In this document: in pieces, positions 1 through 40,929 of the stretch
How positions within the stretch are numbered: the first letter of the stretch is position 1
Layout of the letters: every line of letters starts with the position of its first letter
Virus record (IMG/VR): IMGVR_UViG_3300011008_000003
Direction: 5' to 3' (one strand)
Length of the DNA: 64,000 bases
Origin: a virus
Lineage: Duplodnaviria > Heunggongvirae > Uroviricota > Caudoviricetes
Notes under the pieces: model-generated
What the model was told of the DNA's origin: nothing
Databases searched by the model: none
The model's input: the letters and a program-made list of their open reading frames with translations, nothing else
Made by a program: the position numbers and the translations under genes

Positions 1-47
1 TTCTGGGATTTTCAGTCCCGTCCATTCCCACGATTGGATGCCATGGC
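1..47 (-). tRNA. tRNA-Phe(GAA), 5' part, truncated by window edge
   Basis: Minus strand GCCATGG...GGGA-CTGAAAA-TCCC: anticodon stem-loop with GAA; T arm lies outside the window. Confidence 0.75.
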
Positions 48-49
48 AT

Positions 50-80
50 AAAAGAAAGGTTCCTGTTGTGCACAGGAACC
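50..80 (-). terminator. Intrinsic terminator (attenuator) directly 5' of tRNA-Phe
   Basis: GGTTCCTGT-GCACA-ACAGGAACC 9-bp stem followed by TTTCTTTT. Confidence 0.8.
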
Positions 81-110
81 GTAAATTCTTCATACTCTTA
101 GGTAATCGCT

Positions 111-218
111 TTACTTGAACCTGTGCACTGAATTGTCAATCGCAAATACACGTTCTGCAAATTCTGCAATACGTTCTGCTGCGACCGCGATGAATTCAAT
201 GTTAAAGTTCTTGTTCAT
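111..218 (-). CDS. Putative leader peptide, 35 aa, Phe/Ala-rich (MNKNFNIEFIAVAAERIAEFAERVFAIDNSVHRFK)
   Basis: Own promoter, AAAGGT upstream of ATG; GTGCACAGG (128-120) is complementary to the terminator 5' arm and loop (76-68). Confidence 0.65.
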   Translation of the reverse strand: MNKNFNIEFIAVAAERIAEFAERVFAIDNSVHRFK

Positions 219-232
219 TTTGTTACCTTTTA

Positions 233-267
233 TATTATATATAAAAATGTTTTTCCTGTTTTCGCAA
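233..267 (-). promoter_or_regulatory. Leader-type promoter TTGCGA-N18-TATATATAATA
   Basis: Same motif and spacing at 4914-4948 and 24776-24810. Confidence 0.7.
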
Positions 268-271
268 AATA

Positions 272-323
272 GATTCGGCCAATGGACTCCATCCAAAGTT
301 TTACGTTAGCGCTGCACCGAATC
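272..323 (-). ncRNA. Small hairpin RNA candidate
   Basis: GATTCGGT/GCCGAATC closing stem just downstream of promoter 348-376; no ORF. Confidence 0.3.
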
Positions 324-347
324 ATCTGATGCATCAGTTATGTTTAA

Positions 348-376
348 AATATAGTAAAAAGTTTTTGGTTTGTCAA
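348..376 (-). promoter_or_regulatory. sigma70-like early promoter TTGACA-N17-TATATT (representative of >20 copies in window)
   Basis: Same motif with 17-nt spacer at 595-623, 2876-2904, 4175-4203, 5029-5057, 22021-22049, 49354-49382 and other intergenic sites. Confidence 0.8.
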
Positions 377-401
377 CCCTCTTTTTAAAATATTTTTTTA
401 G

Positions 402-517
402 GCGGCGAGACTGGACTCGAACCAGCAACCCAAAGTACCCATTAAATAGGAATCATCGGTGCTAGAAAGCGGATAATAAAATATAAACTTTTGCTCTACC
501 ATTGAGCTACCCGCCGC
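402..517 (-). ncRNA. tRNA-like RNA with anticodon loop replaced by a 50-nt insert carrying the bulged-helix/UCCUAUU motif (family member A)
   Basis: 8-bp acceptor GCGGCGGG/CTCGCCGC, D arm TAGCTCAATGGTAGAGC, AAAGT/ACTTT stem, T arm GCTGG-TTCGAGT-CCAGT; insert 437-486. Confidence 0.8.
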
Positions 518-522
518 ATATT

Positions 523-587
523 GTTAAAGCGGAATGTAAGTAAACAATAAAGGAAGTTTTTGAATAGGAACATTCATTTGCTTTAAC
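523..587 (-). ncRNA. Bulged-helix/UCCUAUU RNA (member B)
   Basis: GTTAAAGC-AAAT-GAATGT-TCCTATT...ACATTC-C-GCTTTAAC; begins right after promoter 595-623. Confidence 0.7.
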
Positions 588-635
588 GGTTGTAAATATA
601 GTAAAGATTGTTTGGTTTGTCAACCCCCTTTTTAA

Positions 636-1241
636 TTAAAATGCGTTAAAGAATTTTCGCACTTTATCAATCCAGGTAGGAAGCGTCCAACGCTGTTCAA
701 TCTTTCGGCCATCAGGCAAGATGGTCGTTTTATAATAGGTCTTGTAATCCCAAGTTCTATGATCGTCATAATGGATTTCAGCATTATTTTCTTCATCATA
801 CTGGCGATAACTATCAGACACATAGTTTTGATTTCCTGTATGCGGATAATAAAAATTATGATATTCACGTTCGTAAATAACACGATTCTTGTCATCATAA
901 GTATAATATGTAAGAGACACGCTTTCGTCAGAACGGTTTTCATGCTTCATGTAGAAAACATGCTTAATACAGCGGTTCTTGCTGTCATATTCATTAAATT
1001 CGCGATGTAATTCTGTAATATTATTATGTACCGACACGACATATTCATGAGACAACCGGTTATTGTTTTCGTCAAATGTCGAATTAGTATAGTATGAACC
1101 GCGTTCTTCGTCCGGATAAATAACCGATGAATGAATAACATTGCCGCGTTCATCCTTAACTTCGGTACGTGTATCGGCTGGGGATACAACCTTGACACCA
1201 TTATCGATAATCGTATAGCTTTTATCGGGATTCTGCCAGTT
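636..1241 (-). CDS. Hypothetical protein with YD-like repeats (YDxxNR); start uncertain
   Basis: ORF 636-1055 stays open in frame up to 1241 without ATG; repeats FDENNN, YDSKNR, YDDKNR, YDEENN; possible 5' frameshift. Confidence 0.55.
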   Translation of the reverse strand, partial: NWQNPDKSYTIIDNGVKVVSPADTRTEVKDERGNVIHSSVIYPDEERGSYYTNSTFDENNNRLSHEYVVSVHNNITELHREFNEYDSKNRCIKHVFYMKHENRSDESVSLTYYTYDDKNRVIYEREYHNFYYPHTGNQNYVSDSYRQYDEENNAEIHYDDHRTWDYKTYYKTTILPDGRKIEQRWTLPTWIDKVRKFFNAF

Positions 1242-1445
1242 TTAAAATCAAAAAATGTGTCTGATACGATTCACGCACCTTTTTAGAAGACTTAGACACA
1301 AAATTTATAAGCCTTGAGCGGACACGTTACACCTAATACGCTCATAGCCGACCCATTCTCCAGGGTTAGGGCCTATATGTCAAGTATCATTGCGCATTGA
1401 TAATCCGGGTGAAGACTCCAGATACACATAGGACTTTTTAAAAGC

Positions 1446-1517
1446 TTGGCGGGAAGTAGACCTTCAAATTAGCATTTTGATGCTCTTACTGAGCTAAATA
1501 GGAACTTCCTATGCCAA
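1446..1517 (-). ncRNA. Bulged-helix/UCCUAUU RNA enclosing D arm + anticodon-like arm, GCT (member C)
   Basis: TTGGC-ATA-GGAAGT-TCCTATT-TAGCTCAGTAAGAGC-A-TCAAA-ATGCTAA-TTTGA-AGGTCT-ACTTCC-C-GCCAA. Confidence 0.75.
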
Positions 1518-1624
1518 AATTTTTCGGATATTAATATTTTACTATCAATATCCGGTTAGAATCACCTACAATTTATAGTTTGACGAGAACCGAATTGTTT
1601 GCTTTCTAACTGATGTTTTCGTAC

Positions 1625-1696
1625 TAGCGGGTCTTGGACTCGAACCAAGGACTTTTGGGTTATGGGCCCAAATTGCTACCACTGCATCAACCCGCG
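1625..1696 (-). tRNA. Initiator-type tRNA-Met(CAT)
   Basis: Cloverleaf, C1:T72 mismatch, GGG/CCC in anticodon stem, CAT anticodon. Confidence 0.9.
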
Positions 1697-1717
1697 TCAA
1701 AATAAACTCAAAAATAT

Positions 1718-1815
1718 GGTAAGTGGCCGACACTGTTCAAGACACGCATTCAGTTCCTCGTGCACTAGGCAGAACTCTGGAATTTACTTAGTGTCGGCCT
1801 TAAGGCACACTTACC
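1718..1815. ncRNA. ~100-nt rod-like hairpin with internal bubble
   Basis: GGTAAGTG/CACTTACC and GCCGACACT/AGTGTCGGC nested inverted repeats. Confidence 0.5.
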
Positions 1816-1860
1816 GTACCTGCAGTCTTTTCGTTTTAAGTAGAAAGAAAATATATGTAA

Positions 1861-1977
1861 AAATAAACTCAGTTGCTTTAAAGTAGAAGAACCTGAAATA
1901 ACTCGGCTGCTTTGAAGTAGAAGAGCTTTGAAATAACTCAGTTGCTTTGAAGTAGAAGAACCTGAAATAACTCAGTT
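1861..1977. repeat. Tandem repeat, 34-35 nt x ~3.4, no spacers
   Basis: Units start at 1861, 1896, 1931, 1965; consensus AAATAACTCAGTTGCTTTGAAGTAGAAGAACCTG. Confidence 0.9.
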
Positions 1978-2014
1978 TTTTGTGGAAACCTTGAAAAACC
2001 ATTTTCAAACACTC

Positions 2015-2860
2015 TGCCGGAATCCCGATTCTCCACCGGCCATGACGTCTATCAACTGCCCATTCTATCGGTCGACTTCTTATAGGGTACAAACTCCGTC
2101 ATCTAGCAATTTATTGATCGTCTAGCTATATCTTATATTAATTAAAAACTGCTTAATGGAACACTTCCGGACTTATCTATTTATATGCAACCAAGGATCC
2201 TGTCCTAAAAATGCAGCGTATAAGGCTTTTTAACCGATATAGGGGCACATGTTCTGTACTGGAACCAGCCCACGTACATATCGTCCACAAGCAGTTTTTA
2301 ATTAACATAATACTCTCTATACTCCGCCTGATATAGATTCAGTGCTTAACAGGTTCTCAATAGGAGCTACCTATACAAAAGGCTACAAACCATTTGCCTA
2401 ACATATACTTTAAATATGTCCAGTTGTTGAACCCGTCGGGCGTTATAGGTTCCGGGCGATAAACACAGCACGTTACCGGGACTTCAGAGAAAGCATTCAA
2501 TGTGTGTTCATTGATTTTCTCACGCACTTAAGTAAAACACGTTACAGTCCATATGCTTACAGGCATCCTAATTACAAGGACCGATTAAGAAGTACAACTG
2601 GTGGTTAACCCAGAATTTCTCTTCGCGCACTCTTATTTCAAGTGGCCTCACGTGGCATATTTACAGAGCCAATACTACTCCTTTGCGACCATCATTCTTA
2701 AATCCATAATTCGCAAAGTCAGATTCCTCATCCCAGAGTTTTCCCCATCTGGGTTAGCCCGCTAGCATGAACATGAATGGTGCAACACGGGTTCTCCTCA
2801 CATATAGACTATACTCAATTTCGTTCTTTCAATCTACTGAAACACTCGCTGGTGTTTCAA
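2015..2860 (-). ncRNA. Large structured non-coding region (one large or several ncRNAs)
   Basis: No credible ORF; promoter at 2876-2904; 17-bp perfect IR 2138-2154/2289-2305; 8-bp IR 2420-2427/2594-2601; many local hairpins. Confidence 0.55.
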
Positions 2861-2926
2861 TCATTTACGTCTTATAATATAGTAAATGTTCTTGTGTTCG
2901 TCAACCCTTTTTTATAAAAAAATTTT

Positions 2927-3457
2927 TTATGCCAGGATTATAAGCTCTGCAAGTCTGCGACATGGTTCAGGAATATCCTTACGCTTCAGAAGCATTTCAC
3001 AGACATTCTGATACATTCTCTTCTTTGCATTTTCCTTTGGTTGGTCCCAAGAATTATAAACCATATCGGCAAGCTTAATCAACAAAGCATCCTTCGAAAT
3101 CGAACACAGCTTTTCGGTCATATATTCGGTCTTACCGAGTTGGTCAATGATATGACGGTTATTTGTCAATTCCAAAACCAGTTCTGCTACTTCTTCGCTA
3201 CCAGAAATGACTGCGATTTCTTCATAAGACGTATCAGTATCTTCCAAAAGGTCATGACCGAAGGCGGCGTTAATCTGGTCGATTGTTCCACCATATTTCT
3301 TGACAAGCCAAGCGACTCCGCGAGGATGAACGAAATACGGCATTCCGCTGCCCTTACGAGCCGCATGTGCATGCCTACCCTTCGCAAAGTAATACATGGC
3401 TCGACATTCTACAGGAAAATCCTGCGATTTGGATTTCTTAAACATTGCGCTAAACAT
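2927..3457 (-). CDS. HD-domain (p)ppGpp hydrolase-like protein (Mesh1/small alarmone hydrolase)
   Basis: H...RKGSGMPYFVHP, GHDLLEDT, LIKLAD..YN motifs of the RelA/SpoT hydrolase domain; AAGGAG RBS before 3457. Confidence 0.85.
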   Translation of the reverse strand: MFSAMFKKSKSQDFPVECRAMYYFAKGRHAHAARKGSGMPYFVHPRGVAWLVKKYGGTIDQINAAFGHDLLEDTDTSYEEIAVISGSEEVAELVLELTNNRHIIDQLGKTEYMTEKLCSISKDALLIKLADMVYNSWDQPKENAKKRMYQNVCEMLLKRKDIPEPCRRLAELIILA

Positions 3458-3693
3458 TAATTGCTCCTTGGTTATATAAAACAATATAGAAAAGGGCTGA
3501 CGTTCTGTCAACCCTTTTTCATAAAATAAACGGCGGGAGATTCATTTAGGTGATAAAGTAGCTATCTCTAACACCCATCGCAATTAGACATCAGCACACT
3601 ATCATATGTACACTCAAATAGCATACTGTAATAATCAAAGAAAAACCCTAAGAAACGGTCATGCGATGTATTGTTACCATTAGATGGTTTTAG

Positions 3694-3766
3694 CGCTGGT
3701 GGAGGGATCCGAACCCCCGACCGGCTGATTACAAATCAGCTGCTCTACCTGCTGAGCTACACCAGC
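3694..3766 (-). tRNA. tRNA-Thr(TGT)
   Basis: Canonical cloverleaf, loop TT-TGT-AA. Confidence 0.93.
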
Positions 3767-3782
3767 AAAAGGTGATATATAT

Positions 3783-3917
3783 GGTGATTAACCCACTAAC
3801 GGACTATATCTGCCGGATAAGGTATGTACTAACGCCTCGTTACCTCTATCAGAACCATCGCTTCGTGATGTAAGGCGAATCAAAACTTGGGTTCCTTACA
3901 CGCTTTTGGAAATCACC
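3783..3917 (-). ncRNA. Structured RNA candidate with possible pseudoknot
   Basis: GGTGATT/AATCACC closing stem, TGTAAGG/CCTTACA stem whose loop AACCCA can pair with downstream TGGGTT. Confidence 0.4.
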
Positions 3918-3995
3918 CACGAAGAATAAGTCTCCATTGTCTGCATGAAATCCCACTTTCATGTATTTACTGTTGTATGACTTTAGACTATTTTA

Positions 3996-4069
3996 TCGGA
4001 GTAGCCAGATTCGAACTGACGACATTCTGCTCCCAAAGCAGACGCTCTACCAGACTGAGCTACACTCCG
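3996..4069 (-). tRNA. tRNA-Pro(TGG)
   Basis: Canonical cloverleaf, C1-G72, A73, loop TT-TGG-GA. Confidence 0.93.
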
Positions 4070-4080
4070 GAAATTTTTAG

Positions 4081-4160
4081 CTGTTCCACCTGGACTCGAA
4101 CCAGGGACCAGGGACCAAGCGATTAACAGTCGCTCGCTCTACCAACTGAGCTATGGAACA
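4081..4160 (-). tRNA. tRNA-Asn(GTT) with 7-nt duplication (TGGTCCC) in variable region
   Basis: Cloverleaf, loop CT-GTT-AA, G73; TGGTCCC-TGGTCCC-TGG before T loop. Confidence 0.85.
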
Positions 4161-4223
4161 ATCTTGTATTAACAAATATAGCAATTAATGTTCTACTTGT
4201 CAACCCATAAAATAATTTTTTCG

Positions 4224-4299
4224 CGCCTGGTGAGAGATTCGAACTCCCGACCGGATGATTACTAAACATCTGCTCTAAAGCCAGCTGAGCTAACCAGGC
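4224..4299 (-). tRNA. tRNA-Thr(AGT)
   Basis: Cloverleaf GCCTGGT/ACCAGGC, loop TT-AGT-AA, T:T at base of anticodon loop. Confidence 0.85.
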
Positions 4300-4306
4300 A
4301 AAAATT

Positions 4307-4376
4307 TGGCGGGTCGTAAAACCTTTTGATTACCAATCAACTGCTCATCTGAGCTAAATAGGAACGACCTATGCCA
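4307..4376 (-). ncRNA. Bulged-helix/UCCUAUU RNA enclosing D arm + Thr(GGT) anticodon arm (member D)
   Basis: TGGC-ATA-GGTCGT-TCCTATT-TAGCTCAGATGAGC-A-GTTGA-TTGGTAA-TCAAA-AGGTTTT-ACGACC-C-GCCA; no T arm. Confidence 0.78.
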
Positions 4377-4379
4377 TTA

Positions 4380-4462
4380 TCAGGGTAGCAGGATTCGAAC
4401 CTGCGATGTCACGAGGACGCTAGCTCCCGAAGCTAGTGGCAAACCAACCTGCCGCTACCCTG
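4380..4462 (-). tRNA. tRNA-Pro(CGG) with long variable arm
   Basis: CAGGGTA/TACCCTG, A73, loop TT-CGG-GA, 15-nt variable region CGTCCTCGTGACATC. Confidence 0.85.
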
Positions 4463-4476
4463 TTTTAATTTGTTCG

Positions 4477-4549
4477 TCAGAGTGGCTGGGCTCGAACCAG
4501 CGACCCCTCGCATCCTAGGCGAGCTCTCTACCAACTGAGTTACACTCTG
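4477..4549 (-). tRNA. tRNA-Pro(AGG)
   Basis: CAGAGTG/CACTCTG, A73, loop CT-AGG-AT. Confidence 0.85.
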
Positions 4550-4552
4550 ATA

Positions 4553-4604
4553 AAGTCACTACTTGGACAACTGGCGGAAAGTACGCACGCTCCGTGAGTG
4601 ACTT
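4553..4604 (-). ncRNA. Small hairpin element between tRNAs
   Basis: AAGTCACT/AGTGACTT 8-bp closing stem with inner CGGA/TCCG. Confidence 0.3.
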
Positions 4605-4606
4605 AG

Positions 4607-4681
4607 CTCCAAGGGAAGGATTCGAACCTCCGAAATCTGACACGTTAACAGCGTGCTGGCATACCGCTTGCCGACCCTGGA
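4607..4681 (-). tRNA. tRNA-Asn(GTT)
   Basis: TCCAGGG/CCTTGGA, G73, loop CT-GTT-AA; atypical D arm and 8-nt variable loop. Confidence 0.85.
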
Positions 4682-4690
4682 ATAAATTAG

Positions 4691-4763
4691 CTGGGAAGGA
4701 GGGATTCGAACCCCCAACATAGTGGTTAACAGCCACCCGTTCTACCATTAGAACTACGACCCA
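4691..4763 (-). tRNA. tRNA-Asn(GTT), two acceptor-stem mismatches
   Basis: TGGGTCG/CTTCCCA, loop CT-GTT-AA, canonical T arm. Confidence 0.82.
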
Positions 4764-4769
4764 ATGTAT

Positions 4770-4805
4770 AAAAAAGAAATCCTGTATGGTTTCAATCATA
4801 CAGGA
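4770..4805 (-). terminator. Intrinsic terminator (attenuator) directly 5' of the Asn-Asn-Pro-Pro-Thr tRNA run
   Basis: TCCTGTATG-N8-CATACAGGA 9-bp stem + TTTCTTTTTT. Confidence 0.85.
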
Positions 4806-4835
4806 CTTATCAAAAAAATCGGTATATGAAGAAAC

Positions 4836-4898
4836 CTAATCCAAAAGCACTCCTGGATTCGTCGGATTAGTATTATTTGTGTTCTTCATAAAAGTCAT
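4836..4898 (-). CDS. Putative leader peptide, 20 aa, MTFMKNTNNTNPTNPGVLLD
   Basis: Translated by hand; 5 Asn, 4 Thr, 2 Pro; alternative 1:2, 2:3 and 3:4 pairings. Confidence 0.75.
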   Translation of the reverse strand: MTFMKNTNNTNPTNPGVLLD

Positions 4899-4913
4899 TT
4901 TCTTATCTCTTTA

Positions 4914-4948
4914 TATTATATATAAAAGTTTTTTCCTGTTTTTCGCAA
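4914..4948 (-). promoter_or_regulatory. Leader-type promoter TTGCGA-N18-TATATATAATA
   Basis: Near-identical to 233-267. Confidence 0.7.
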
Positions 4949-4952
4949 AAAT

Positions 4953-5013
4953 AAACAGCGGGCAGTAAGAACCATAAACCAAAGGAGTAAAATAGGAACT
5001 GCGTATGCTGTTT
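4953..5013 (-). ncRNA. Bulged-helix/UCCUAUU RNA with anti-SD-like loop (member E)
   Basis: AAACAGC-ATA-CGCAGT-TCCTATT-TTACTCCTTTGGTTTATGGTTCTT-ACTGCC-C-GCTGTTT; just downstream of promoter 5029-5057. Confidence 0.72.
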
Positions 5014-5063
5014 TGTTTTACATGTTATAATATAGTAAATGTTTTTGTGTTTGTCAACCCTTT

Positions 5064-5603
5064 TTAATCAACTTTTTTAACATTTTTTATTTCGACTTGT
5101 TTTGCAAAATATTCAAACATTTCGATTGCCGCTTGAGGATATTCTTTCGGATAATTCCTGGACCAGTTATAGAAAACAAGCTGAAGCATTTTTGTCAAAT
5201 GTTTGCTATTAATAAATTCTACATTGGTCAAATAAGAAATCATCTGCGTAATATCATTTTGGGTGGTTCCGACATCATCTGTTATCTTACGATAGACATT
5301 AAACATTTTCTGCCGTACCGATACGACATATTTCTTATACTTGTTCAGATAATATCTTAAAGTAAACATATAGTTTACGTATTCATATTTATCTTTACCG
5401 TAGAAAATTGTCGCTGACGATTTCAAGTTTCGTGAAATATGCAAGATAGCGACTTTCTTTCCGTTAATGTCGCATCTTACATAGTAATCGCCAGGATATG
5501 CATTCTTCGTCTCAATCGAATATTCAGACTGATATTCGACAAATTCACAATCTTTACCGAGAACTTCGGTACAGGTTTTTCTAAAAGAATCGGGCGTAAT
5601 CAT
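5064..5603 (-). CDS. Hypothetical protein
   Basis: ORF in co-oriented gene run. Confidence 0.7.
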   Translation of the reverse strand: MITPDSFRKTCTEVLGKDCEFVEYQSEYSIETKNAYPGDYYVRCDINGKKVAILHISRNLKSSATIFYGKDKYEYVNYMFTLRYYLNKYKKYVVSVRQKMFNVYRKITDDVGTTQNDITQMISYLTNVEFINSKHLTKMLQLVFYNWSRNYPKEYPQAAIEMFEYFAKQVEIKNVKKVD

Positions 5604-5606
5604 AGT

Positions 5607-5921
5607 TTATGTTCTTCCAAAATATTCAAAATATCTTTTCATACAGTTAGTAAGTCTTTTCTGAGTACCTTTACTTACCTCCTCATAAGACTTTAACTGT
5701 GCTTCTTTTATTTTTTTACGATTGACAATAAGATCTCCAATAGATTCGACTATCATCCAACCAATAGCTATCGCAATGATAATAGGACCAAGAAGAATAC
5801 AAATTCCTTCTGAAACTATTTTTTCAGCAATATTGTCAAATTTACAAGTCTTATCCGGAATAATAATACATGCCATTATAATGGTAGAAATAATACAGTA
5901 AACTATTAATGCGGTCAACAT
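5607..5921 (-). CDS. Hypothetical membrane protein
   Basis: Two hydrophobic segments. Confidence 0.65.
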   Translation of the reverse strand: MLTALIVYCIISTIIMACIIIPDKTCKFDNIAEKIVSEGICILLGPIIIAIAIGWMIVESIGDLIVNRKKIKEAQLKSYEEVSKGTQKRLTNCMKRYFEYFGRT

Positions 5922-5924
5922 ATT

Positions 5925-6254
5925 TTATTTCTCATAATTATTCACACTGATGTTTCTTACGTCACAATAACGAAAAACTTTAATCTGGTGCGGATCATGT
6001 TTATTATAAAATCTATTTGTACCGCCGAAACCAAAAACATCTTCTCGTTCCCAATCCTTCATAGAAAGTAATTCACAACGATTACCGCTGTATTTGGGAC
6101 AAATCTGATATGTATCTGGTTCAGGTGCAGGTTCATGATAATATATGATACCGCATATAGGGCTTACTATAAGTATTGAACAGATATAAACAACTTTCCA
6201 TTCAGAAAAATGCTTAATGACTGGTCTGAAAAGACGGTACAAATAGTTTTTCAT
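5925..6254 (-). CDS. Hypothetical membrane-anchored protein
   Basis: One hydrophobic segment. Confidence 0.6.
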   Translation of the reverse strand: MKNYLYRLFRPVIKHFSEWKVVYICSILIVSPICGIIYYHEPAPEPDTYQICPKYSGNRCELLSMKDWEREDVFGFGGTNRFYNKHDPHQIKVFRYCDVRNISVNNYEK

Positions 6255-6257
6255 AGG

Positions 6258-6695
6258 CTAGTGATTGTCGTTGTCGATGATAATCTTTGTTTCTGGACAG
6301 AATACGAACTTGAAAAGTGCTTCAGGATTATCGATGAAGCCAGCAAGCAAGCGACAATTAGAATCGACACTCTGATGGTCGATATAACCGACCATATTTT
6401 CTACCGATTCCGGAATTTCAAGAGTGATTTGCTTGGTAGCGAAATAATCGATAACTGCCTGACGCTTTTCAGGTTCATAATCCATACCTGTGTCCTTGAT
6501 AGCTACGAGCCAGTAGTCAAGCAAAGAATACGGAGTGTCCAAAACATCGTAACCCCATCCATATTCACCTTCACCACGGGCGGCAAGAGTCTGCGGGGCA
6601 GGATTGAGGTTTTCACATGCGCTAGCGCAAGGGAAGCAGATTGTATGTTCAGAAGAACTGTTTGTTTCAAAAACGTTAGGTCTAATTGTCTTCAT
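6258..6695 (-). CDS. Conserved-looking phage protein with N-terminal FETNSSS motif
   Basis: MKTIRPNVFETNSSSEH; AAGGA RBS; adjacent to radical SAM gene. Confidence 0.7.
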   Translation of the reverse strand: MKTIRPNVFETNSSSEHTICFPCASACENLNPAPQTLAARGEGEYGWGYDVLDTPYSLLDYWLVAIKDTGMDYEPEKRQAVIDYFATKQITLEIPESVENMVGYIDHQSVDSNCRLLAGFIDNPEALFKFVFCPETKIIIDNDNH

Positions 6696-6745
6696 GATTA
6701 TTTCCTTTTTGTGAAATATAGTAAATCGGGATGTACTTGTAAACC

Positions 6746-7783
6746 CTACCAACCCTTGATAGATAACTTAAACAAGTCCCTAATATTTTCTGTTCCGTCG
6801 AAGCTATGCCTCATATCGAGCGGAGCCGTACTCATTCGGCAAACCTTCATAGTTGGAACGTCGATAAACATAGTACAGCATGTAATATTGTACATATCAT
6901 CCTTAACCTTCGTATCAGAGCCTTGATACAGAGTATTCCATGTACTATCGTTTACGCCCATAAGAGATTGAGGCTTGACCTGTTCAATTCCTAAATCGTC
7001 AAATGAAATAGTATTGAATTCAAATGCAAGAATAGGCAAAGACTTCTTGAGCCATTCGATATTCTTGTTTATCGACATAAATTCTTTCTGTAGATGGTCA
7101 TGACCGCGACGAAGATTCTTATATCCAAGGACGATAATCTTCCTATTACGGACAAACGGAATATCGGCTTCGTTGAACAGTCCGGCAATCACATGAATAA
7201 TTACATTCGAACCGAGCATATCGATAATTTTCATATCGTCCGTATTCGAAGAATCTGTCATGGAAACGCCGATACCGTTGACTAGTTTTTCATTTACCAG
7301 TTTCAGTAACAAATCCTTATTCCTGGCAAGATGTTTCTGGTTTACGGTAATATTGGAAATAACGCCCTGCTTTTTCAGAAGTTCAAGGAACCAAACCAAA
7401 TCAGGATGTTCAAAGATATTCCCGCCGCCGATTGCGACTTCAGTACCAGGCTGCAAAGTCTTAATCATCGGTTCAATCTGTCGAAGATTTCCATTCACGC
7501 CTTTTACGGTAGAATTCTCGTGGCAATAGATACAGCCACCGTCACAGCGGTCGGTAATCTTTATGTCGAAATTCTCAGGAAATTCATAAGTCAGATGGTC
7601 TGTTTCTACATCAACCCAACGATTTACACGTTTGCTGTCTGGACCTATTTCATTGATATAATATCCGGTTTCCTTAACTTTCGTACCGTCCGCATAAAGG
7701 ATCGTACGGTGATTGCCATTTACATAACTTCCGACAATTTCTTTATTGTCTGTAAAAATTTTTATCGCTTCGTCTTGTTTCAT
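6746..7783 (-). CDS. Radical SAM protein
   Basis: CDGGCIYC (CxxxCxxC), AIGGGN...HP motif. Confidence 0.9.
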   Translation of the reverse strand: MKQDEAIKIFTDNKEIVGSYVNGNHRTILYADGTKVKETGYYINEIGPDSKRVNRWVDVETDHLTYEFPENFDIKITDRCDGGCIYCHENSTVKGVNGNLRQIEPMIKTLQPGTEVAIGGGNIFEHPDLVWFLELLKKQGVISNITVNQKHLARNKDLLLKLVNEKLVNGIGVSMTDSSNTDDMKIIDMLGSNVIIHVIAGLFNEADIPFVRNRKIIVLGYKNLRRGHDHLQKEFMSINKNIEWLKKSLPILAFEFNTISFDDLGIEQVKPQSLMGVNDSTWNTLYQGSDTKVKDDMYNITCCTMFIDVPTMKVCRMSTAPLDMRHSFDGTENIRDLFKLSIKGW

Positions 7784-7790
7784 CTTCGTT

Positions 7791-8141
7791 TTAAGGTAAT
7801 TTTTCAATACTCATTAGAGTTTTTGTATTTTCAAGCCACATTTTTACTTTTGACGGGACTTCATTAAAAAGAATATCTTTCATATAACATACTACTGCGC
7901 CGTTGATTTTAAGATAAACCTTATCGGCCGCTTCAGTATGTGCATAAAAGAACCATGAGTGTTCATCATAAGAACCTAAATATCGAGTACCGTATACTCG
8001 TATTGCTTGTCTAAAACAGCTACTGTCAACCCATGGTGTAAATATTTCATTAATTACATCAAGATTAATGTAACATATTATCTGTTCTTTTTTGCTACAA
8101 TCATCTATGAACCCGACATAAACATTTTTGTCTACTGTCAT
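7791..8141 (-). CDS. Hypothetical protein
   Basis: ORF with ATGA overlap. Confidence 0.6.
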   Translation of the reverse strand: MTVDKNVYVGFIDDCSKKEQIICYINLDVINEIFTPWVDSSCFRQAIRVYGTRYLGSYDEHSWFFYAHTEAADKVYLKINGAVVCYMKDILFNEVPSKVKMWLENTKTLMSIEKLP

Positions 8142-8470
8142 TTAAATAATTCCGGATGATTATCTTTCAGCTGTTCATACTGGTTCATATTCTTTACGTA
8201 TATCTTAGAGAAGTTGTTAAGGAACCAGGCACGCTTTTCAAGTTCGTCCTTGATGGAATCATTCTGTTCGATAGAACTGGACGGAATCATGGTAAAGGAC
8301 TTTTCAAAATAATCCGGATGAACCTTCATTACTGTGTCGAGCTTCATGTAAAGCTCGTCATAATGGGTCTTCAATGTATTGATACGGTTGTTAATAGTTT
8401 CAAGGTCTGCGGCACGGCGTGCCATTGCTTCGTTTAAATTATCCATTTGTTTCTCCATCGAGATTGTCAA
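8138..8470 (-). CDS. Hypothetical coiled-coil protein
   Basis: Heptad-like N-terminus. Confidence 0.6.
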   Translation of the reverse strand: MTISMEKQMDNLNEAMARRAADLETINNRINTLKTHYDELYMKLDTVMKVHPDYFEKSFTMIPSSSIEQNDSIKDELEKRAWFLNNFSKIYVKNMNQYEQLKDNHPELFK

Positions 8471-9672
8471 TTACTTTTTCCAAATATTTGTTATGTGCTT
8501 TCGTACATAGGTCAAACGGCGACATTTTCATCAGCTGTTCCTTATAGCGGTGAACCTGCCAAGGAAACTTAAATGCTGGGCTATCCTCTATATAGATAGA
8601 ATTCCTGTCATACAGAATTTCTACCTTGATATAGTATCTAAAGAAATGCCAAAAGCCTTTAACCTCATGTATCTTAATAAAGATAGTAAAGTTTTCAGGA
8701 ATATTGTTGTAAAAATATTTTTGTAAATCAAATGTATCGTCACAGATAGCAGTCTTTGTTTTTCCTTGAATAATCTTAATCATAAGGAAAACAAAAAATG
8801 CAATTAATACTGCTTCGACATCATCGAAAAATCCAGCATCAATCAGGTCTAATACCGTCGAGGTCATTTATGACTCCTTCCATATAAACGTTATATGCTT
8901 GTATCGTAAGTTTCTTAAAATCGATATTCATAATTTTCTTCTTAACTCGCTTGATAGACAGAAAACTATTTAAAGGTTCTTCGAAATTAAATACTGGAGC
9001 ACCGCTATAATAAACATTGATTAAAAAAACGGGCGTAGTTTCATCATCGTTGAGTCTTGTATCGAAACATATTCCAAGCTCTTCAGGAATTTGACGGGCG
9101 GTTTTTAACCGCAGATACCATCTCGTAAGTTCATCCCATAAGACAAGAGTACGTTCCTTAACACGTATACGGGACAAACGAAACAAGGATGAACCTAATA
9201 GATAAAAACTGACACCCAACCCGACTAATGTTATTAAATCTTCTAAAAATCCATCGTACATAGTTTAGCCCTCGATAGAATTGAACGTAGATTCAATATA
9301 ATCGTTATATGCGTCGACACAGAGCTGCTTTATGTCGGAATTTAAAACCTTTTCCTTGAACTTCTTTGCCTTAAATCCGAAAATAAAGCTGATATCCTTT
9401 CCGAACGGATAATATACCCATTTACCGTCACCGTAATCATATGTTACAGTAATATTGATACTGTAGCTCGGTTTTAAAACTTTGGGACGCCAGTCATAGT
9501 CTACGTCAAGCCTGTAGCAGTTAGGTAAAGACCGAAAATGATCCGCAGCCCAGACTCTGAGCTTATTGCAGATACTGTTTACTTCAGCGTCGGTATGTTC
9601 AATATACATAGCAATAAGACCGGTAGAATTGACGATAGCGCTTACAACACACAAAATATCTTTAACTTCCAT
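8439..9672 (-). CDS. Three tandem paralogous N-anchored membrane proteins (8439-8867, 8839-9261, 9265-9672)
   Basis: N-terminal TM segment; shared C-termini KAHNKYLEKVIDNLDG / QAYNVYMEGVINDLDG / DAYNDYIESTFNSIEG. Confidence 0.65.
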
Positions 9673-20140: not shown

Positions 20141-21277
20141 CTATCCATCTAGATCCGCCTTGTCAAATGTGTGATAGTTCTTAAATAGCTTCTTGAATTC
20201 ACTTTCTCGGTCCATTTCGTCACAATGAGTGATTTCCAGGACTTGAGACGAAATACCGGGTACCTTATTAAGTTTATAGTCGTTATCGATACGATTCTTA
20301 AGCTCATTAAGGTCGAGATAACCATATTTGAAATCTCCCTGGAACTTATTACGGTGATTCATCAAATCGTCCTTAATATCGCCAGAAATTTCACTACGTT
20401 TCGTTTCGTCGAACTGACCTGCGCCGTGTCTGGTCAAATACGGCCGTGTAACATAATGAACAGTCAAGTCGTTAATGAAATACAAATCTTTAGAATCGAC
20501 TGCGCCGATACCTGTAACAGACGGCGTAGTATGTACATTATCCGGATCGTCATTCAAAAGAAGTCCTTGTCCGTTTTCGAAAATATATTCGTCGAAATCA
20601 CCAGGAACATTGACAGTAAACTTCACATGGTCAAACATGAACTTACAATCGTCGATAAAATGTTCCATCAAGCCGTCGCTCTCCCAAATTTCTCGTTCTT
20701 CCTTGGTCATTTCGAACTTAGGAGCATACCCAGCGAAAGAATCGAAATATTTGGTATTGAAGTAACTGCGGACATACTTGAGATATGTCTTCTGGTTAGT
20801 CGGAAATGTCCTTGCGAATTCTTCGAAACCGAGAATATAATTCTTGGAACAACGGAGAACTGTTTCCCAAATGCCCATACCACAAGAACCGTGTTCTTCG
20901 TGATACTTCTGACGATTCTCTTCAATAATCTGGTTAGCCAAAATATCGTACGGAGTAGTCCAGCGGCAGAACCTGTGCATGTATATTTGCGGCATAGGCA
21001 GCTTTTTGGCCAGTTCTTTGTATTCCTTGACGAACTGCATGGGATTTACAATGAAGTCCTTAGAGAAGAACGTAGACGCGCCGTAACACGTTCCAGAACC
21101 GAAGTGCTTGAACGTAAACACTTCACCGTTTTTAACGACAGTATGACCACGTTGAGGACCGCCATTGGTAAGGATATTCAGAACCTTACCGTTAGCGTTT
21201 TTCGTATAATGGGCTATGACCGTGCCTTTTCCTTCGTCGCCCCAGTTGGAACCGATAATAATTCTACCCTTCGTCAT
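20141..21277 (-). CDS. purA: Adenylosuccinate synthetase-like protein (divergent)
   Basis: WGDEGKG, NGGPQRGHT, HGSCGMG, ENGQG, TRHGAG. Confidence 0.85.
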   Translation of the reverse strand: MTKGRIIIGSNWGDEGKGTVIAHYTKNANGKVLNILTNGGPQRGHTVVKNGEVFTFKHFGSGTCYGASTFFSKDFIVNPMQFVKEYKELAKKLPMPQIYMHRFCRWTTPYDILANQIIEENRQKYHEEHGSCGMGIWETVLRCSKNYILGFEEFARTFPTNQKTYLKYVRSYFNTKYFDSFAGYAPKFEMTKEEREIWESDGLMEHFIDDCKFMFDHVKFTVNVPGDFDEYIFENGQGLLLNDDPDNVHTTPSVTGIGAVDSKDLYFINDLTVHYVTRPYLTRHGAGQFDETKRSEISGDIKDDLMNHRNKFQGDFKYGYLDLNELKNRIDNDYKLNKVPGISSQVLEITHCDEMDRESEFKKLFKNYHTFDKADLDG

Positions 21278-22014
21278 CGCCTTCGAGTTCTCCGATTGAT
21301 AAGATTGTTTTGATATAGTTAAATGCTGCGAAGATAATGTCTTCGTTATTGCCAAAATTGTTAAATTCTTTGCCGTTTATTATGATACATTTTGGTCTGC
21401 TACGTGAAATATAGGAAGTAAATGTTCTAAATTCAACGGCATCATTTACAATATCAAGATAACCAATAATATAAGCATGGTCGGCAATATCTGTTCGACA
21501 GTAGACCACATTATTGAAATCGTTGACAATTTCCCAAGAATCACCGAATATTTTTACATTCAAATTCAATTTTGCTAGTCCAACCAATTTTTCCTGATTG
21601 TCTGTTGCCCATTGGACTGCATCACTATGGCCAAGTTTATAAAGATTGTCATACATTTTCGTTCAAGCTCTCTAAAGATAAAACAACATCGAGATAGTTA
21701 ATGGCGATTCTGACTTTATCGGCAGAATCAGTCTTGAAAGACTTGCCTGCGATAACCATGAATTCCGGTTGATATACAAACGGATAACTGCAGTACATTC
21801 TAAAATCGCCATCTTTATTGAAATAACCGATTCTTAATTCGCCTTCATCGCGAATGGTTGCAATAACGTTATTAAAAATCTGATACTTTCTTTTAGTCTT
21901 TCCGATAGTAACAGAAATAGGATGCTTAACCCTGTTGTAGATTTCACTTTCAGTTAATCCGAAAACAGTTTTAATCTGATCCATGTAGAATTTAGTAAGA
22001 TTGATTTTAGCCAT
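21264..22014 (-). CDS. Two tandem paralogous hypothetical proteins (21264-21656, 21649-22014)
   Basis: Shared IGY...FR...SY...IxGKxF...AxNY...LS pattern. Confidence 0.6.
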
Positions 22015-30000: not shown

Positions 30001-31275
30001 TTAGACAACAGTCATGCTACCTTTCCATTGGTCAAGCGGAATATAATCGAATACCTGCTTAACGTAGTCAACATAAGTAGGAGATTCGCACATATTCTTT
30101 TCAGGACAATCGCTCAACTTAACGACATCCTTGCCATTGACCTTGACAACCTTCATAACCATGGACAACGGCTTAATACCAGCAGTAGCAGTTACAAGAT
30201 TTGCCATGAAATAAGTACCGATACCGAAGCTAATCTTGATACGGCCGTTGAAATGCTGAGCAATCTTAATTGCCTTATCAACGTCGAGAGAATCAGACCA
30301 GCAACCAGTCTTGGTAGTCGGGTCAATACCGAGTGCCTTATAATGGGCAATCAGCATTTCGCCCCAGACAAACGGGTCACCGCTATCGTGACGGCATCCG
30401 TCGAACAGCTTCGCATAGAACTTATCGAAGTCGCGAAGGAACGGGATAAAGCCGAAATTGTCAGACAACGCGATACCAAGATCGCCACGATATTCCTGTG
30501 TCCATGCGTCGAACACTGCCTTCTGAGACTGGCGAATAGGAACGTCGTCAAGTCCCTGGAACAAAGCATACATTTCGTGTGCAAACGTTCCAATTGCCTT
30601 TACGCCATATTTAATAGCGAAATAAAGGTTAGACGTTCCGACAAAGCACTTGCAATGCTTGGCCATGTAACCAACTGCATAGTCTTGCCATGCAAAGGAA
30701 TGACGACGGCGTGCACCAAAGTCAGCGAAACCGAACTTCAAACCAGAATCGATAGCAGCGTTAAACTTATCAACTGCATCTTTAAGATTTTGCTTTGCCT
30801 TGTCAAAATCAAATTCAAACTGGCGGAGATAAAGTTCCTGGATAATTTCCATCACATAGATTTCAAACCATGTGACTTTGAGCTGTGGACCTTCTGCTTC
30901 GATTTCAAGATCGTCACCACGGCGAGTAATCTTGATGTACTTTCTCTTAAGACGGAAATCTTCAAGCCAATCAACGTAATCCGGCTTAATATAATAAATC
31001 TTGGAAAGAGCATTAAGCTCAAAAGGCTGCCAGCGAAGTGTACAAAGATGGTCGACTTCACGATTTACTGCATCGACAAGATAACCAAGATGAACGTCTT
31101 TAGAACGAAGCTTCCATTTCCACTTAGCCCATTCATTCGGTCGCTTATGAAGCAAACATTGTGTCATACTGACCTTGTAAATGTCAGTGTCACTCAAGTA
31201 ATTGATAATATACTTATCTTCATCGAGTGGTTTATAGTTCTTGATTTCTTCAATTTCTTTTTGAGAAAGTTCCAT
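30001..31275 (-). CDS. pncB: Nicotinate phosphoribosyltransferase
   Basis: DTDIYK, DFGARRRHS, GTSN, GTFAHE, RHDSGDP, SFGIGT, KLSD. Confidence 0.93.
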   Translation of the reverse strand: MELSQKEIEEIKNYKPLDEDKYIINYLSDTDIYKVSMTQCLLHKRPNEWAKWKWKLRSKDVHLGYLVDAVNREVDHLCTLRWQPFELNALSKIYYIKPDYVDWLEDFRLKRKYIKITRRGDDLEIEAEGPQLKVTWFEIYVMEIIQELYLRQFEFDFDKAKQNLKDAVDKFNAAIDSGLKFGFADFGARRRHSFAWQDYAVGYMAKHCKCFVGTSNLYFAIKYGVKAIGTFAHEMYALFQGLDDVPIRQSQKAVFDAWTQEYRGDLGIALSDNFGFIPFLRDFDKFYAKLFDGCRHDSGDPFVWGEMLIAHYKALGIDPTTKTGCWSDSLDVDKAIKIAQHFNGRIKISFGIGTYFMANLVTATAGIKPLSMVMKVVKVNGKDVVKLSDCPEKNMCESPTYVDYVKQVFDYIPLDQWKGSMTVV

Positions 31276-39109: not shown

Positions 39110-40216
39110 TTATTCATTATCCATTTTCTCGAGAGCGTCCTTAATAATCATTTCGTGATGGAAACCCATTTTCGGAAGATTATCAAGTTTGAACCAACGA
39201 GTATCGGCTGCGTCGTCACCCGCGAAAGCAAGCTTCTTTTCCTTGCCAGTTACATGGACGAGGAACGCAGTATCGATAATACGGAGGCGCGGGTCGAACA
39301 TATGGCTGTAAGTACGAATCTGCTTGAACTTATGAACAGGAATATCCAGATGAGTTTCTTCGCGGAGTTCACGAGCTGCGGCATGTTCGAGGTCTTCGTC
39401 AGCCTTTACGTTCTTACCAGTTTCCTTGTCGACAATATCAATCGGATCAAAGAAACCGCCACAGCAGCACCAGTAATTCTGGAAAGGAGGTTTCTTACGA
39501 CGGATAAGCAAGACTTCATCGCCACAGATAGGAACGTTGTCGACAGTATTAGCGAACTTGCCCCATCCCTGCTTCTTGTAATTTTCGATAAATGCCTTTT
39601 CAATCTTATCGTAATCCAAAGGATTCTGATGATACAGCGAATGTTCCTTAATATAATGGAAAACGTTCTTGCTGATATGGTCCTGGACCAGCTTATAATG
39701 ACATTCCGGATCCATTTCAAATGCCTGACGAACATAGCTACTGGAAACATCCTGAACCTTATCGCTCAGTTCCATAAACGTATAGTCGTAGGAATCGGTA
39801 GTATACTTCTTCTGCCAATCCTTTTCGCTTCCCTTACGGGTAAAGATGATAAACTTGTAGTATTTCAAAAGACGCTTGGAGAACTTCCACTTGTCGGCAA
39901 GCAAGCTAGCCCATTCGTCTTCGCCGATAACAATAGTAATGTCCTTCGGGTCGACTGTTCTGAAATTTACAGAAATAAATTCATACATTCGGTTATTCTG
40001 CTTATACAGCTCGTACTTCTTGATATTACGAGCGGCAAGAGCATTACGAACCATATTGCAACGTTCTTCAACCGAAGTACGATTTTTCTTTTCATCATTA
40101 TCGGTTACGAGGATATGGAACTTATCATTCTGGCGAAGCTTCTTATGGATCGTCTTGATAATTTCTTCGTGTGCATGAGTAAACGGGTCAAACCAGCTTC
40201 CAAAAATATAATGCAT
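39110..40216 (-). CDS. Nucleotidyltransferase (NadD/NadM-like)-Nudix hydrolase fusion
   Basis: FDPFTHAH, VIGED, VSSSYVR; Nudix box AAARELREET, DPRLR, AGDDA. Confidence 0.88.
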   Translation of the reverse strand: MHYIFGSWFDPFTHAHEEIIKTIHKKLRQNDKFHILVTDNDEKKNRTSVEERCNMVRNALAARNIKKYELYKQNNRMYEFISVNFRTVDPKDITIVIGEDEWASLLADKWKFSKRLLKYYKFIIFTRKGSEKDWQKKYTTDSYDYTFMELSDKVQDVSSSYVRQAFEMDPECHYKLVQDHISKNVFHYIKEHSLYHQNPLDYDKIEKAFIENYKKQGWGKFANTVDNVPICGDEVLLIRRKKPPFQNYWCCCGGFFDPIDIVDKETGKNVKADEDLEHAAARELREETHLDIPVHKFKQIRTYSHMFDPRLRIIDTAFLVHVTGKEKKLAFAGDDAADTRWFKLDNLPKMGFHHEMIIKDALEKMDNE

Positions 40217-40929
40217 AGAAACATCCTTTATGTTTTTATTAAATATAGAAAAAGGCTGACTCGTCGTCAACCCTTTATATTTTAGTTGATAAAATTAATT
40301 CTCAGTAGATTCGAAGAATAGTTTTGTAAAATTGTCGCCGTCCTCGGCATATACAAATTTAAAATCATATTCTTTTACGAAATCGAAATCAGATATAACA
40401 TCTTTCTGCTTTTCGATTTTCGGAAAACAGAACTGTTTAAATCTGGTAATCTGACGAGAAGCGCCGATTGTACCTTCGGCTTCATCTACTATCGAGAATT
40501 TCTTTGTTTTCTTATCAAATTTAACTTCGACCATAAATCCTCCGTTTAATCTGGTAATGAGTTAATTGCTTCTTCTACTCTCTCATTTTTATATTCAATA
40601 TACTCTTTTTTGATAAATGAAAAGAAATCTGTCTTAGGCTGCTTTGCTATATATAACATTATCAACTGAGGCAATGTAGTTTTATACATACCGTTAGTAA
40701 GGTCATTTTCCTGTTCAAACTTAATAATTTCGTCAATATCAGTAGATACGTCTTTACCGTCTTCACCGATTGATGTAAAAATTGAAGTTAAAGGAAAATA
40801 ATGGGTCTCATTGTCAATAGATATTACTATTGACTTAGTACGAAGTTCCACAAAAAGTATAGTTTTGGTTTTTTCGAGGTTTATACAACCTAACCCATCA
40901 GTACCACTAACATATGTCAAAATCAACAT

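Follow-up and report, generated by a model that had tools for sequence, protein, structure and literature searches.

A giant uncultured phage probably makes an array of Asn, Pro and Thr tRNAs only when the matching codons are read slowly

Leader-peptide attenuation is a textbook mechanism, and as far as was found its known cases are confined to operons for amino-acid biosynthesis and a small number of others that code for proteins. One of these cases concerns the translation apparatus, namely the pheST operon (phenylalanyl-tRNA synthetase), which is attenuated through the pheM leader. Three reports deal with phage-borne tRNA arrays (those of T5, set against PARIS and retron effectors, and those of mycobacteriophage), which are thought there to replace depleted host tRNAs (PMC11464382, PMC11555353, PMC10264068). 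The subject of the present study is a unit in a 64,000-nucleotide (nt) stretch of DNA from an uncultured tailed phage (Caudoviricetes; IMG/VR record IMGVR_UViG_3300011008_000003), which is called the window below. In this unit, all of whose features are on the minus strand, a 20-codon leader open reading frame (ORF) and an intrinsic terminator precede a set of tRNA genes. Judged from the sequence, the unit is likely a ribosome-mediated (leader-peptide) transcription attenuator that controls the phage tRNA array.

Leader codons and the arrays that follow them

The leader ORF lies at 4898-4836. It holds 5 Asn, 4 Thr and 2 Pro codons, and the original prediction that this 20-codon ORF has a core of Asn, Thr and Pro only was borne out, as codons 6-15 consist solely of these three. 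A Shine-Dalgarno-like AAAGAG, read from the sequence at 4912-4907, is situated 8 nt ahead of the ATG. It fits the AAAGGA-type ribosome-binding sites of the phage's own long genes, and AAAGG or AAGAG is found at an equal distance in all paralogous leaders. The leader ORF is presumably translated. Codon-anticodon reading was scored under standard wobble rules, and ten of the 19 post-start sense codons were found to be decoded by the unit's own tRNAs (binomial P = 5e-5), compared to 1/18 and 0/18 in the other two frames.

The genes downstream of the attenuator are tRNAs only, according to ARAGORN and Rfam. The first, tRNA-Asn(GTT) at 4763-4690 (called by both programs; 54.3 bits in Rfam), starts 6 nt past the U-tract of the terminator, and is followed by a second tRNA-Asn(GTT) at 4681-4606 (both programs, 49.2 bits) and by tRNA-Pro(AGG) at 4549-4476 (both programs, 55.8 bits), the anticodon arm of which has a 25-nt exact match in G001 relatives (see below). 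Next comes tRNA-Pro(CGG), with a long variable region, at 4462-4380; this gene was detected by Rfam only (42.6 bits, no ARAGORN call), and the anticodon was assigned by visual inspection of the sequence, where a 5-bp stem closes the loop. The final gene of the controlled array is tRNA-Thr(AGT) at 4299-4223 (both programs, 54.9 bits). The five tRNA genes listed in the original prediction are thus present, but its “Thr(GGT) half-tRNA” is, instead of a tRNA gene, one copy of a repeated scaffold RNA. This element, read from the sequence at 4376-4305, displays a Thr(GGU)-like anticodon arm, has a paralog at 1517-1446 with compensatory stem changes, and is kept in G001. A second Asn/Pro/Thr set had been proposed to lie behind a promoter at 4203-4175; a promoter with 11/12 consensus matches and a TG extension was indeed found there, and the set it heads, which has no leader, contains Asn, Pro(TGG) and Thr(TGT).

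A wobble-position A occurs in several of the array tRNAs, i.e. Pro(AGG) at 4549-4476, Thr(AGT) at 4299-4223 and a Ser(AGA) tRNA on contig L153; an Arg(ACG) tRNA with a long variable arm was also found (L030, 4175-4254). A wobble A is unusual in bacteria apart from Arg(ACG), and these array tRNAs imply either broad A-to-I editing or an unmodified A34.

No cultured relative of the phage is known. Searches of the phage collection in GenBank for close and remote DNA matches, made with the locus and with the leader of a relative, returned generic tRNA matches or nothing. Among viral contigs, nothing matched the upstream 179-aa gene in a protein-anchored search or the terminator in an exact search, and an exact-protein look-up gave two contigs that were 100% identical to the window and hence uninformative. 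The relatives, which are uncultured viral contigs, were reached through a conserved box that precedes the leader, and several fragments were obtained as well. They include G001 (411 kb, 98% complete) and the complete genomes G005 (424 kb) and G006 (416 kb), both of which have terminal repeats. A metagenome scan with the Pro(AGG) anticodon arm yielded L037, a contig closely related to the window; the other match of that scan was unrelated and was discarded.

At least six types of paralogous leader-terminator module were found in the relatives, each ahead of a different tRNA array: Gln/Lys/Arg, Asn/Thr/Pro, Ala/Glu/Phe(/Val), Asp/Arg/Lys/Gly/His, Leu/Ser/Trp and Ser/Tyr/Met(/Cys/Ile). Five of them, all types but Ser/Tyr/Met, were located in G001 by the shared box and not by composition, and each features a ribosome-binding site, an ORF of 20-37 codons, a terminator and a tRNA array. 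In these five, the tRNAs of a module's own array decode 38-67% of its leader codons, compared to 0-21% for the other arrays (binomial P from 2e-3 to 1e-11), and the true pairing of leaders and arrays was the best of 120 permutations. An independent set, drawn from G005-G009, supplied 17 distinct leaders and the sixth type; all were enriched (P ≤ 9e-3). When leaders were randomly reassigned to arrays, the observed fit was reached in 0/20000 trials. Over 21 distinct leaders, the tRNAs of the adjoining array read 289/604 codons (48%) in the ORF frame, compared to 9% and 10% in the other frames; this frame specificity argues for reading by a ribosome over direct pairing between the RNA and tRNAs.

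The fit extends to the choice among synonymous codons. Ahead of Ser(GCT), 5/5 Ser codons are AGY (P = 0.004), and ahead of two Leu(GAG) genes 5/12 Leu codons are CTC (P = 0.013). The Lys codon is AAG where Lys(CTT) follows and AAA where Lys(TTT) follows (Fisher P = 0.018), and the G005 leader that precedes Asn, Pro(TGG) and Thr(TGT) contains ACA three times and CCA twice. It had been suggested that relatives be examined for leaders whose codon content changes with the downstream tRNA set, and such changes were found: besides the fit of each of the six types to its own array, the Ser/Tyr/Met leader has 0 Cys codons in G006, which has no Cys tRNA in that array, vs. 3-5 in G005 and G007, where the Cys tRNA is present. 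Ile and Val codons likewise follow the presence of Ile and Val tRNA genes.

The window itself contains a second module, of the Ala/Glu/Phe(/Val) type, at 270-58 on the minus strand (box 270-230, leader 218-111, terminator 80-58). Its leader has 35 codons, its array continues past the start of the window, and downstream of its orthologs in G006 and G009 there are tRNAs for Glu, Ala, Phe and Val. The antiterminator duplex of this module was calculated at -18.8 kcal/mol, a value reached by 0/500 shuffles.

Orthologs of the Asn/Thr/Pro leader were found in four other lineages (G001, G005, G007 and L037). They have 20-21 codons and keep the start, the stop and the composition, while Asn and Thr swap places within the three-amino-acid core. 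Loss of the ORF and of the antiterminator in homologous loci had been named as an outcome that would speak against attenuation; the antiterminator analysis covered G001, G005 and G007, all of which have one. L037 is nearly identical to the window over the leader stretch. In G005 and G007, the counterpart of the window's leaderless set has a leader of its own, rich in Val, Thr, Asn and Pro (L170 and L160; G005 412625-416800), and the Asn/Thr/Pro leader comes after it, mid-operon and without the AT-rich box.

Terminator, competing pairings and upstream elements

An intrinsic terminator had been predicted at 4805-4770. It was found as a 12-bp stem at 4808-4777 (-15.5 kcal/mol) that begins 27 nt past the leader stop codon, with the 5' arm at 4808-4797, the loop at 4796-4789, the 3' arm at 4788-4777 and a U-rich tail to 4770. 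Compared with its G001, G005 and G007 orthologs, the window has a compensatory change in this stem. Because a consensus scan found no promoter-like site between the terminator and the first tRNA, the tRNAs of the array require read-through of the terminator.

The mutually exclusive 1:2, 2:3 and 3:4 pairings of the original prediction were all recovered, and the 2:3 pairing is longer than had been written. Region 1 (4889-4862; codons 4-7 and 10-13) pairs with region 2 in the minimum-energy fold. Region 2 (4844-4816), which runs from the last codons and the stop to 20 nt past it, can pair with either region 1 or the 5' arm of the terminator; most of it would be hidden by a ribosome that has reached the stop codon. 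The leader's minimum-energy fold combines the 1:2 hairpin with the terminator (z = -3.75). Folded separately, the hairpins have energies of -13.6 (1:2), -15.5 (2:3) and -15.5 kcal/mol (3:4). The 1:2 duplex (-18.4 kcal/mol) was matched by 18/1000 dinucleotide shuffles and is present, with a different sequence, in the G001 ortholog (6/500 shuffles). In the 2:3 structure, i.e. the antiterminator, 4836-4816 is paired with 4808-4788, so that the entire 5' arm of the terminator is spanned; this duplex was reached by 22/1000 dinucleotide shuffles.

Decision states were modeled by cutting the RNA before the 3' arm of the terminator and moving a ribosome mask along the leader. The 5' arm was paired at 0.57 when no ribosome was present, and at 0.87-0.89, as antiterminator, when the ribosome was placed at codons 2-11. 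With the ribosome at codons 13-20, the value was 0.56-0.60 (but 0.88 at codon 20), and with the ribosome at the stop codon it was 0.58. Folding of the leader with masked codons had been proposed as a check: the full-length RNA showed no switch, and in the RNA cut before the 3' arm a mask at codons 2-11 favored the antiterminator.

The same arrangement recurs across the modules. Every one has a terminator of -11 to -20 kcal/mol, and in 24/24 units tested the best partner of its 5' arm falls within a span that opens 18 nt ahead of the first stop-codon base and closes 23 nt past it. The antiterminator duplex was reached by at most ca. 5% of shuffles in 24/24 units, and by none in 9. Among paralogs the terminator arms differ, and the partner segments differ with them. 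Since only the Asn/Thr/Pro and Gln/Lys/Arg modules have a significant 1:2 helix, the common core consists of the ORF, the antiterminator over the stop codon, and the terminator.

Upstream of the leader, a sigma-70-type promoter (TTGACA, a 17-nt spacer and TATATT; 11/12 consensus matches) is found at 5057-5029 and is likely the start of the unit's transcript. Promoters of this type also head other tRNA units, at 4203, 623 and 376. The interval between promoter and leader contains a structured scaffold RNA of ca. 60 nt at 5013-4952, identified by its predicted fold, with the motif GUUCCUAU inside and a closing stem of 6-7 bp, in which L037 differs by a compensatory double change; in relatives a tRNA-like element takes the position of this scaffold. 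The conserved box, which was identified from its second copy (270-230) and from the relatives, occupies 4950-4914, with an AT-rich core, TATATATAATA, at 4924-4914. It precedes leaders in relatives, is missing from the G005 and G007 Asn/Thr/Pro orthologs, and may be a phage promoter or an element of the 5' untranslated region. The original prediction had placed the promoter of the unit in this box, at 4948-4914, and this assignment found no support in the consensus scan, which made no call there; the -35-like part is missing in several paralogous units. TTGCGA, the -35 element proposed at that time, was rejected as a general promoter part, as it is missing from units that have no upstream scaffold RNA. 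The AT-rich box of the leaders also precedes each of the ORFs for HNH-type endonucleases in G001.

Proposed mechanism and its rivals

If the unit is an attenuator, transcription would start at the promoter at 5057-5029, and possibly also at the AT-rich box at 4924-4914, and a ribosome would translate the 20-codon leader while RNA polymerase proceeds towards the terminator. When Asn, Thr and Pro codons are decoded fast, the ribosome would arrive at the last codons and the stop and cover region 2; the terminator at 4808-4777 would then form, and transcription would end ahead of the first tRNA gene. When their decoding is slowed by a scarcity of cognate charged tRNA, the ribosome would stall within codons 2-11, mask region 1 and free region 2, which could then pair with the 5' arm of the terminator, and the polymerase would enter the Asn, Asn, Pro, Pro and Thr genes. 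The tRNA products would be the very molecules sensed, which would amount to direct negative feedback on tRNA supply. Termination would be the regulated step, and we infer this direction of the response from the sequence. As to the natural trigger, host anticodon nucleases and general tRNA supply are candidates.

Several results weigh against attenuation of this kind. In masked folds of the full-length RNA at equilibrium, the terminator forms at every ribosome position, as a kinetic switch would lead one to expect; given these models, the switch has to be kinetic, as in trp. With the ribosome at codons 12-15, region 1 is predicted to re-pair behind it. In three types of module (Ala/Glu/Phe, Asp-type and Leu/Ser/Trp), the 1:2 helix fails to reach significance. 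The window's antiterminator, at 22/1000 shuffles, is among the weaker ones, and it uses a segment just past the stop codon whereas the G001-type orthologs use the last four codons; because the segments differ, there is no direct covariation support for the window's 2:3 helix. Finally, the assumption that the A34 tRNAs of the unit read CCA and ACA presupposes that inosine is formed.

The dominance of the terminator in all full-length folds also favors an alternative in which the leader senses decoding and the output is not termination. According to this alternative, a stalled ribosome alters the processing or stability of the tRNA precursor, and the hairpin is a fixed, leaky terminator or a processing signal. 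The scaffold and tRNA-like RNAs that flank the leaders resemble processing substrates and would suit it as well. Such an arrangement is nevertheless considered improbable, since the complement of the 5' arm is positioned over the stop codon in 24/24 units and co-varies with the arm among paralogs, a placement that would be purposeless unless formation of the hairpin is regulated.

More improbable still is the notion that the small ORFs encode functional peptides and have their own terminators, with the tRNAs made by constitutive leak-through and the codon match a product of local co-adaptation. Frame-specific enrichment would also be compatible with a translated peptide gene, and some leaders, for instance those of the Asp/Arg/Lys/Gly/His type, have a peptide sequence that is well conserved from phage to phage. 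However, six unrelated compositions each mirror the adjoining array down to synonymous codons, the Asn/Thr/Pro orthologs swap residues among the same three amino acids, leader content shifts with the gain and loss of tRNAs, and no promoter separates the terminators from the tRNAs. Chance, i.e. a low-complexity ORF that happens to lie beside an ordinary terminator, was rejected as virtually excluded: although the antiterminator and the 1:2 helix of the window are, taken alone, only ca. 2% events relative to shuffles, the codon match of the window leader by itself has P = 5e-5, 21/21 distinct leaders match their own arrays, and reassignment equaled the fit in 0/20000 trials.

With leader-peptide attenuation retained as the preferred explanation of the unit, we lean slightly towards a broader view of the giant-phage clade, namely that its genomes contain a genome-wide, per-codon “decoding meter” of at least six codon-matched attenuators, which together cover nearly all amino acids and each of which induces its own replacement tRNAs when the codons of that set are slow to be decoded. 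If true, the meter would give the phage a means to restore translation in the wake of host tRNA cleavage or shut-off. If the mechanism is true, the product itself would determine the quantity that is sensed, namely how fast given codons are decoded, and tRNA supply would be governed by a minimal feedback loop. The long-standing question of why large phages carry tRNA arrays, and when they use them, is also touched, with the testable prediction that expression is demand-driven, array by array. The modules would be compact natural sensors of codon-specific translation speed for many codon sets, and a use as reporters is conceivable. Should host tRNA cleavage be the trigger, a sensing layer would be added to the conflict over tRNAs between phages and host defences.

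Neighboring elements and comparison with known systems

The scaffold RNA between the promoter and the leader belongs to a family with minus-strand copies in the window at 5013-4952, 4376-4305, 1517-1446, 587-523 and 516-402. Its members have a common closing stem and the invariant GUUCCUAU motif, and their inserts differ, being either mimics of an anticodon arm or entire tRNA bodies. Covariation of the stems was seen between the copies at 4375 and 1513, and between the window and L037. In some tRNA genes (window 516-402, minus strand; L007 8828-8718 and 10092-9978), an insertion of ca. 40-50 nt in the anticodon arm holds a GUUCCUAU-like motif.

Two further kinds of tRNA-like gene were observed in relatives. 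One of them (L007 4761-4688 and L030 2881-2954; 54-57 bits with the Rfam tRNA model) is situated between promoter and leader and has its anticodon loop replaced by a GCAA tetraloop. The other is part of the Ala/Glu/Phe array (L007 8026-7954 and L029 18070-18142) and has an irregular anticodon loop, which is 8 nt long by count and to which ARAGORN assigns a two-base anticodon.

ORFs for HNH-type endonucleases lie inside the G001 tRNA arrays (L029 3500-4280 and L030 ca. 3300-4090) and are missing from the window. Between tRNA units of the window, 3-4 tandem copies of a unit of ca. 37 nt were seen by eye at ca. 1995-1860 on the minus strand. Three ORFs of the window match phage protein families: those at 20141-21355, 30001-31275 and 39110-40270 (minus strand) correspond to a PurZ-like adenylosuccinate synthetase (E = 5e-41), a nicotinamide phosphoribosyltransferase and a cytidylyltransferase-NUDIX fusion.

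The original prediction knew of no description of attenuator-controlled phage tRNA operons, and our full-text literature searches likewise gave no description of a leader-peptide attenuator for tRNA genes. An attenuator-like leader of E. coli tRNA-Phe, considered as a possible precedent, was set aside, as the region upstream of pheV shows a promoter only. When positions 1-9000 of the window were scanned permissively with Rfam (E ≤ 1), only tRNAs and two chance matches were returned, with no match to the leader families (Thr, His, Trp, Leu and Phe) or to the T-box covariance model.

T-box riboswitches resemble the unit in that the status of tRNA is coupled, through an antiterminator, to read-through of an intrinsic terminator. 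They differ in that uncharged tRNA is bound directly, with one specifier codon and no translation, whereas the phage leaders contain many cognate triplets that are frame-specific and lie in an ORF with a ribosome-binding site. The pheM leader of pheST serves a host synthetase gene, responds to one amino acid only and is not followed by tRNA genes. The tRNA sets of T5 and mycobacteriophage are phage-borne arrays, like the present one. To our knowledge, demand-sensing regulation of such defence-countering phage tRNA sets has not been reported, and any link between the attenuator and tRNA-cleaving defences is speculation.

The closest likeness is to the E. coli leaders thrL and ilvL (and also to trpL, hisL, pheL and leuL). 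It comprises a short leader in which regulatory codons for several amino acids abound, the intrinsic terminator after it, an antiterminator that competes for the 5' arm of that terminator, a stop codon so placed that a ribosome terminating there would block the antiterminator and, in the window unit, a 1:2 helix. Unlike these systems, the phage unit would have tRNA genes under its control in place of genes for biosynthetic enzymes, which would make the product itself the sensed species; its regulatory codons fit the anticodons down to the synonymous choice; and it is encoded by a phage, with at least six such units per genome, one for each array. If the mechanism is true, this would be the first leader-peptide attenuation in which tRNA is both signal and product.

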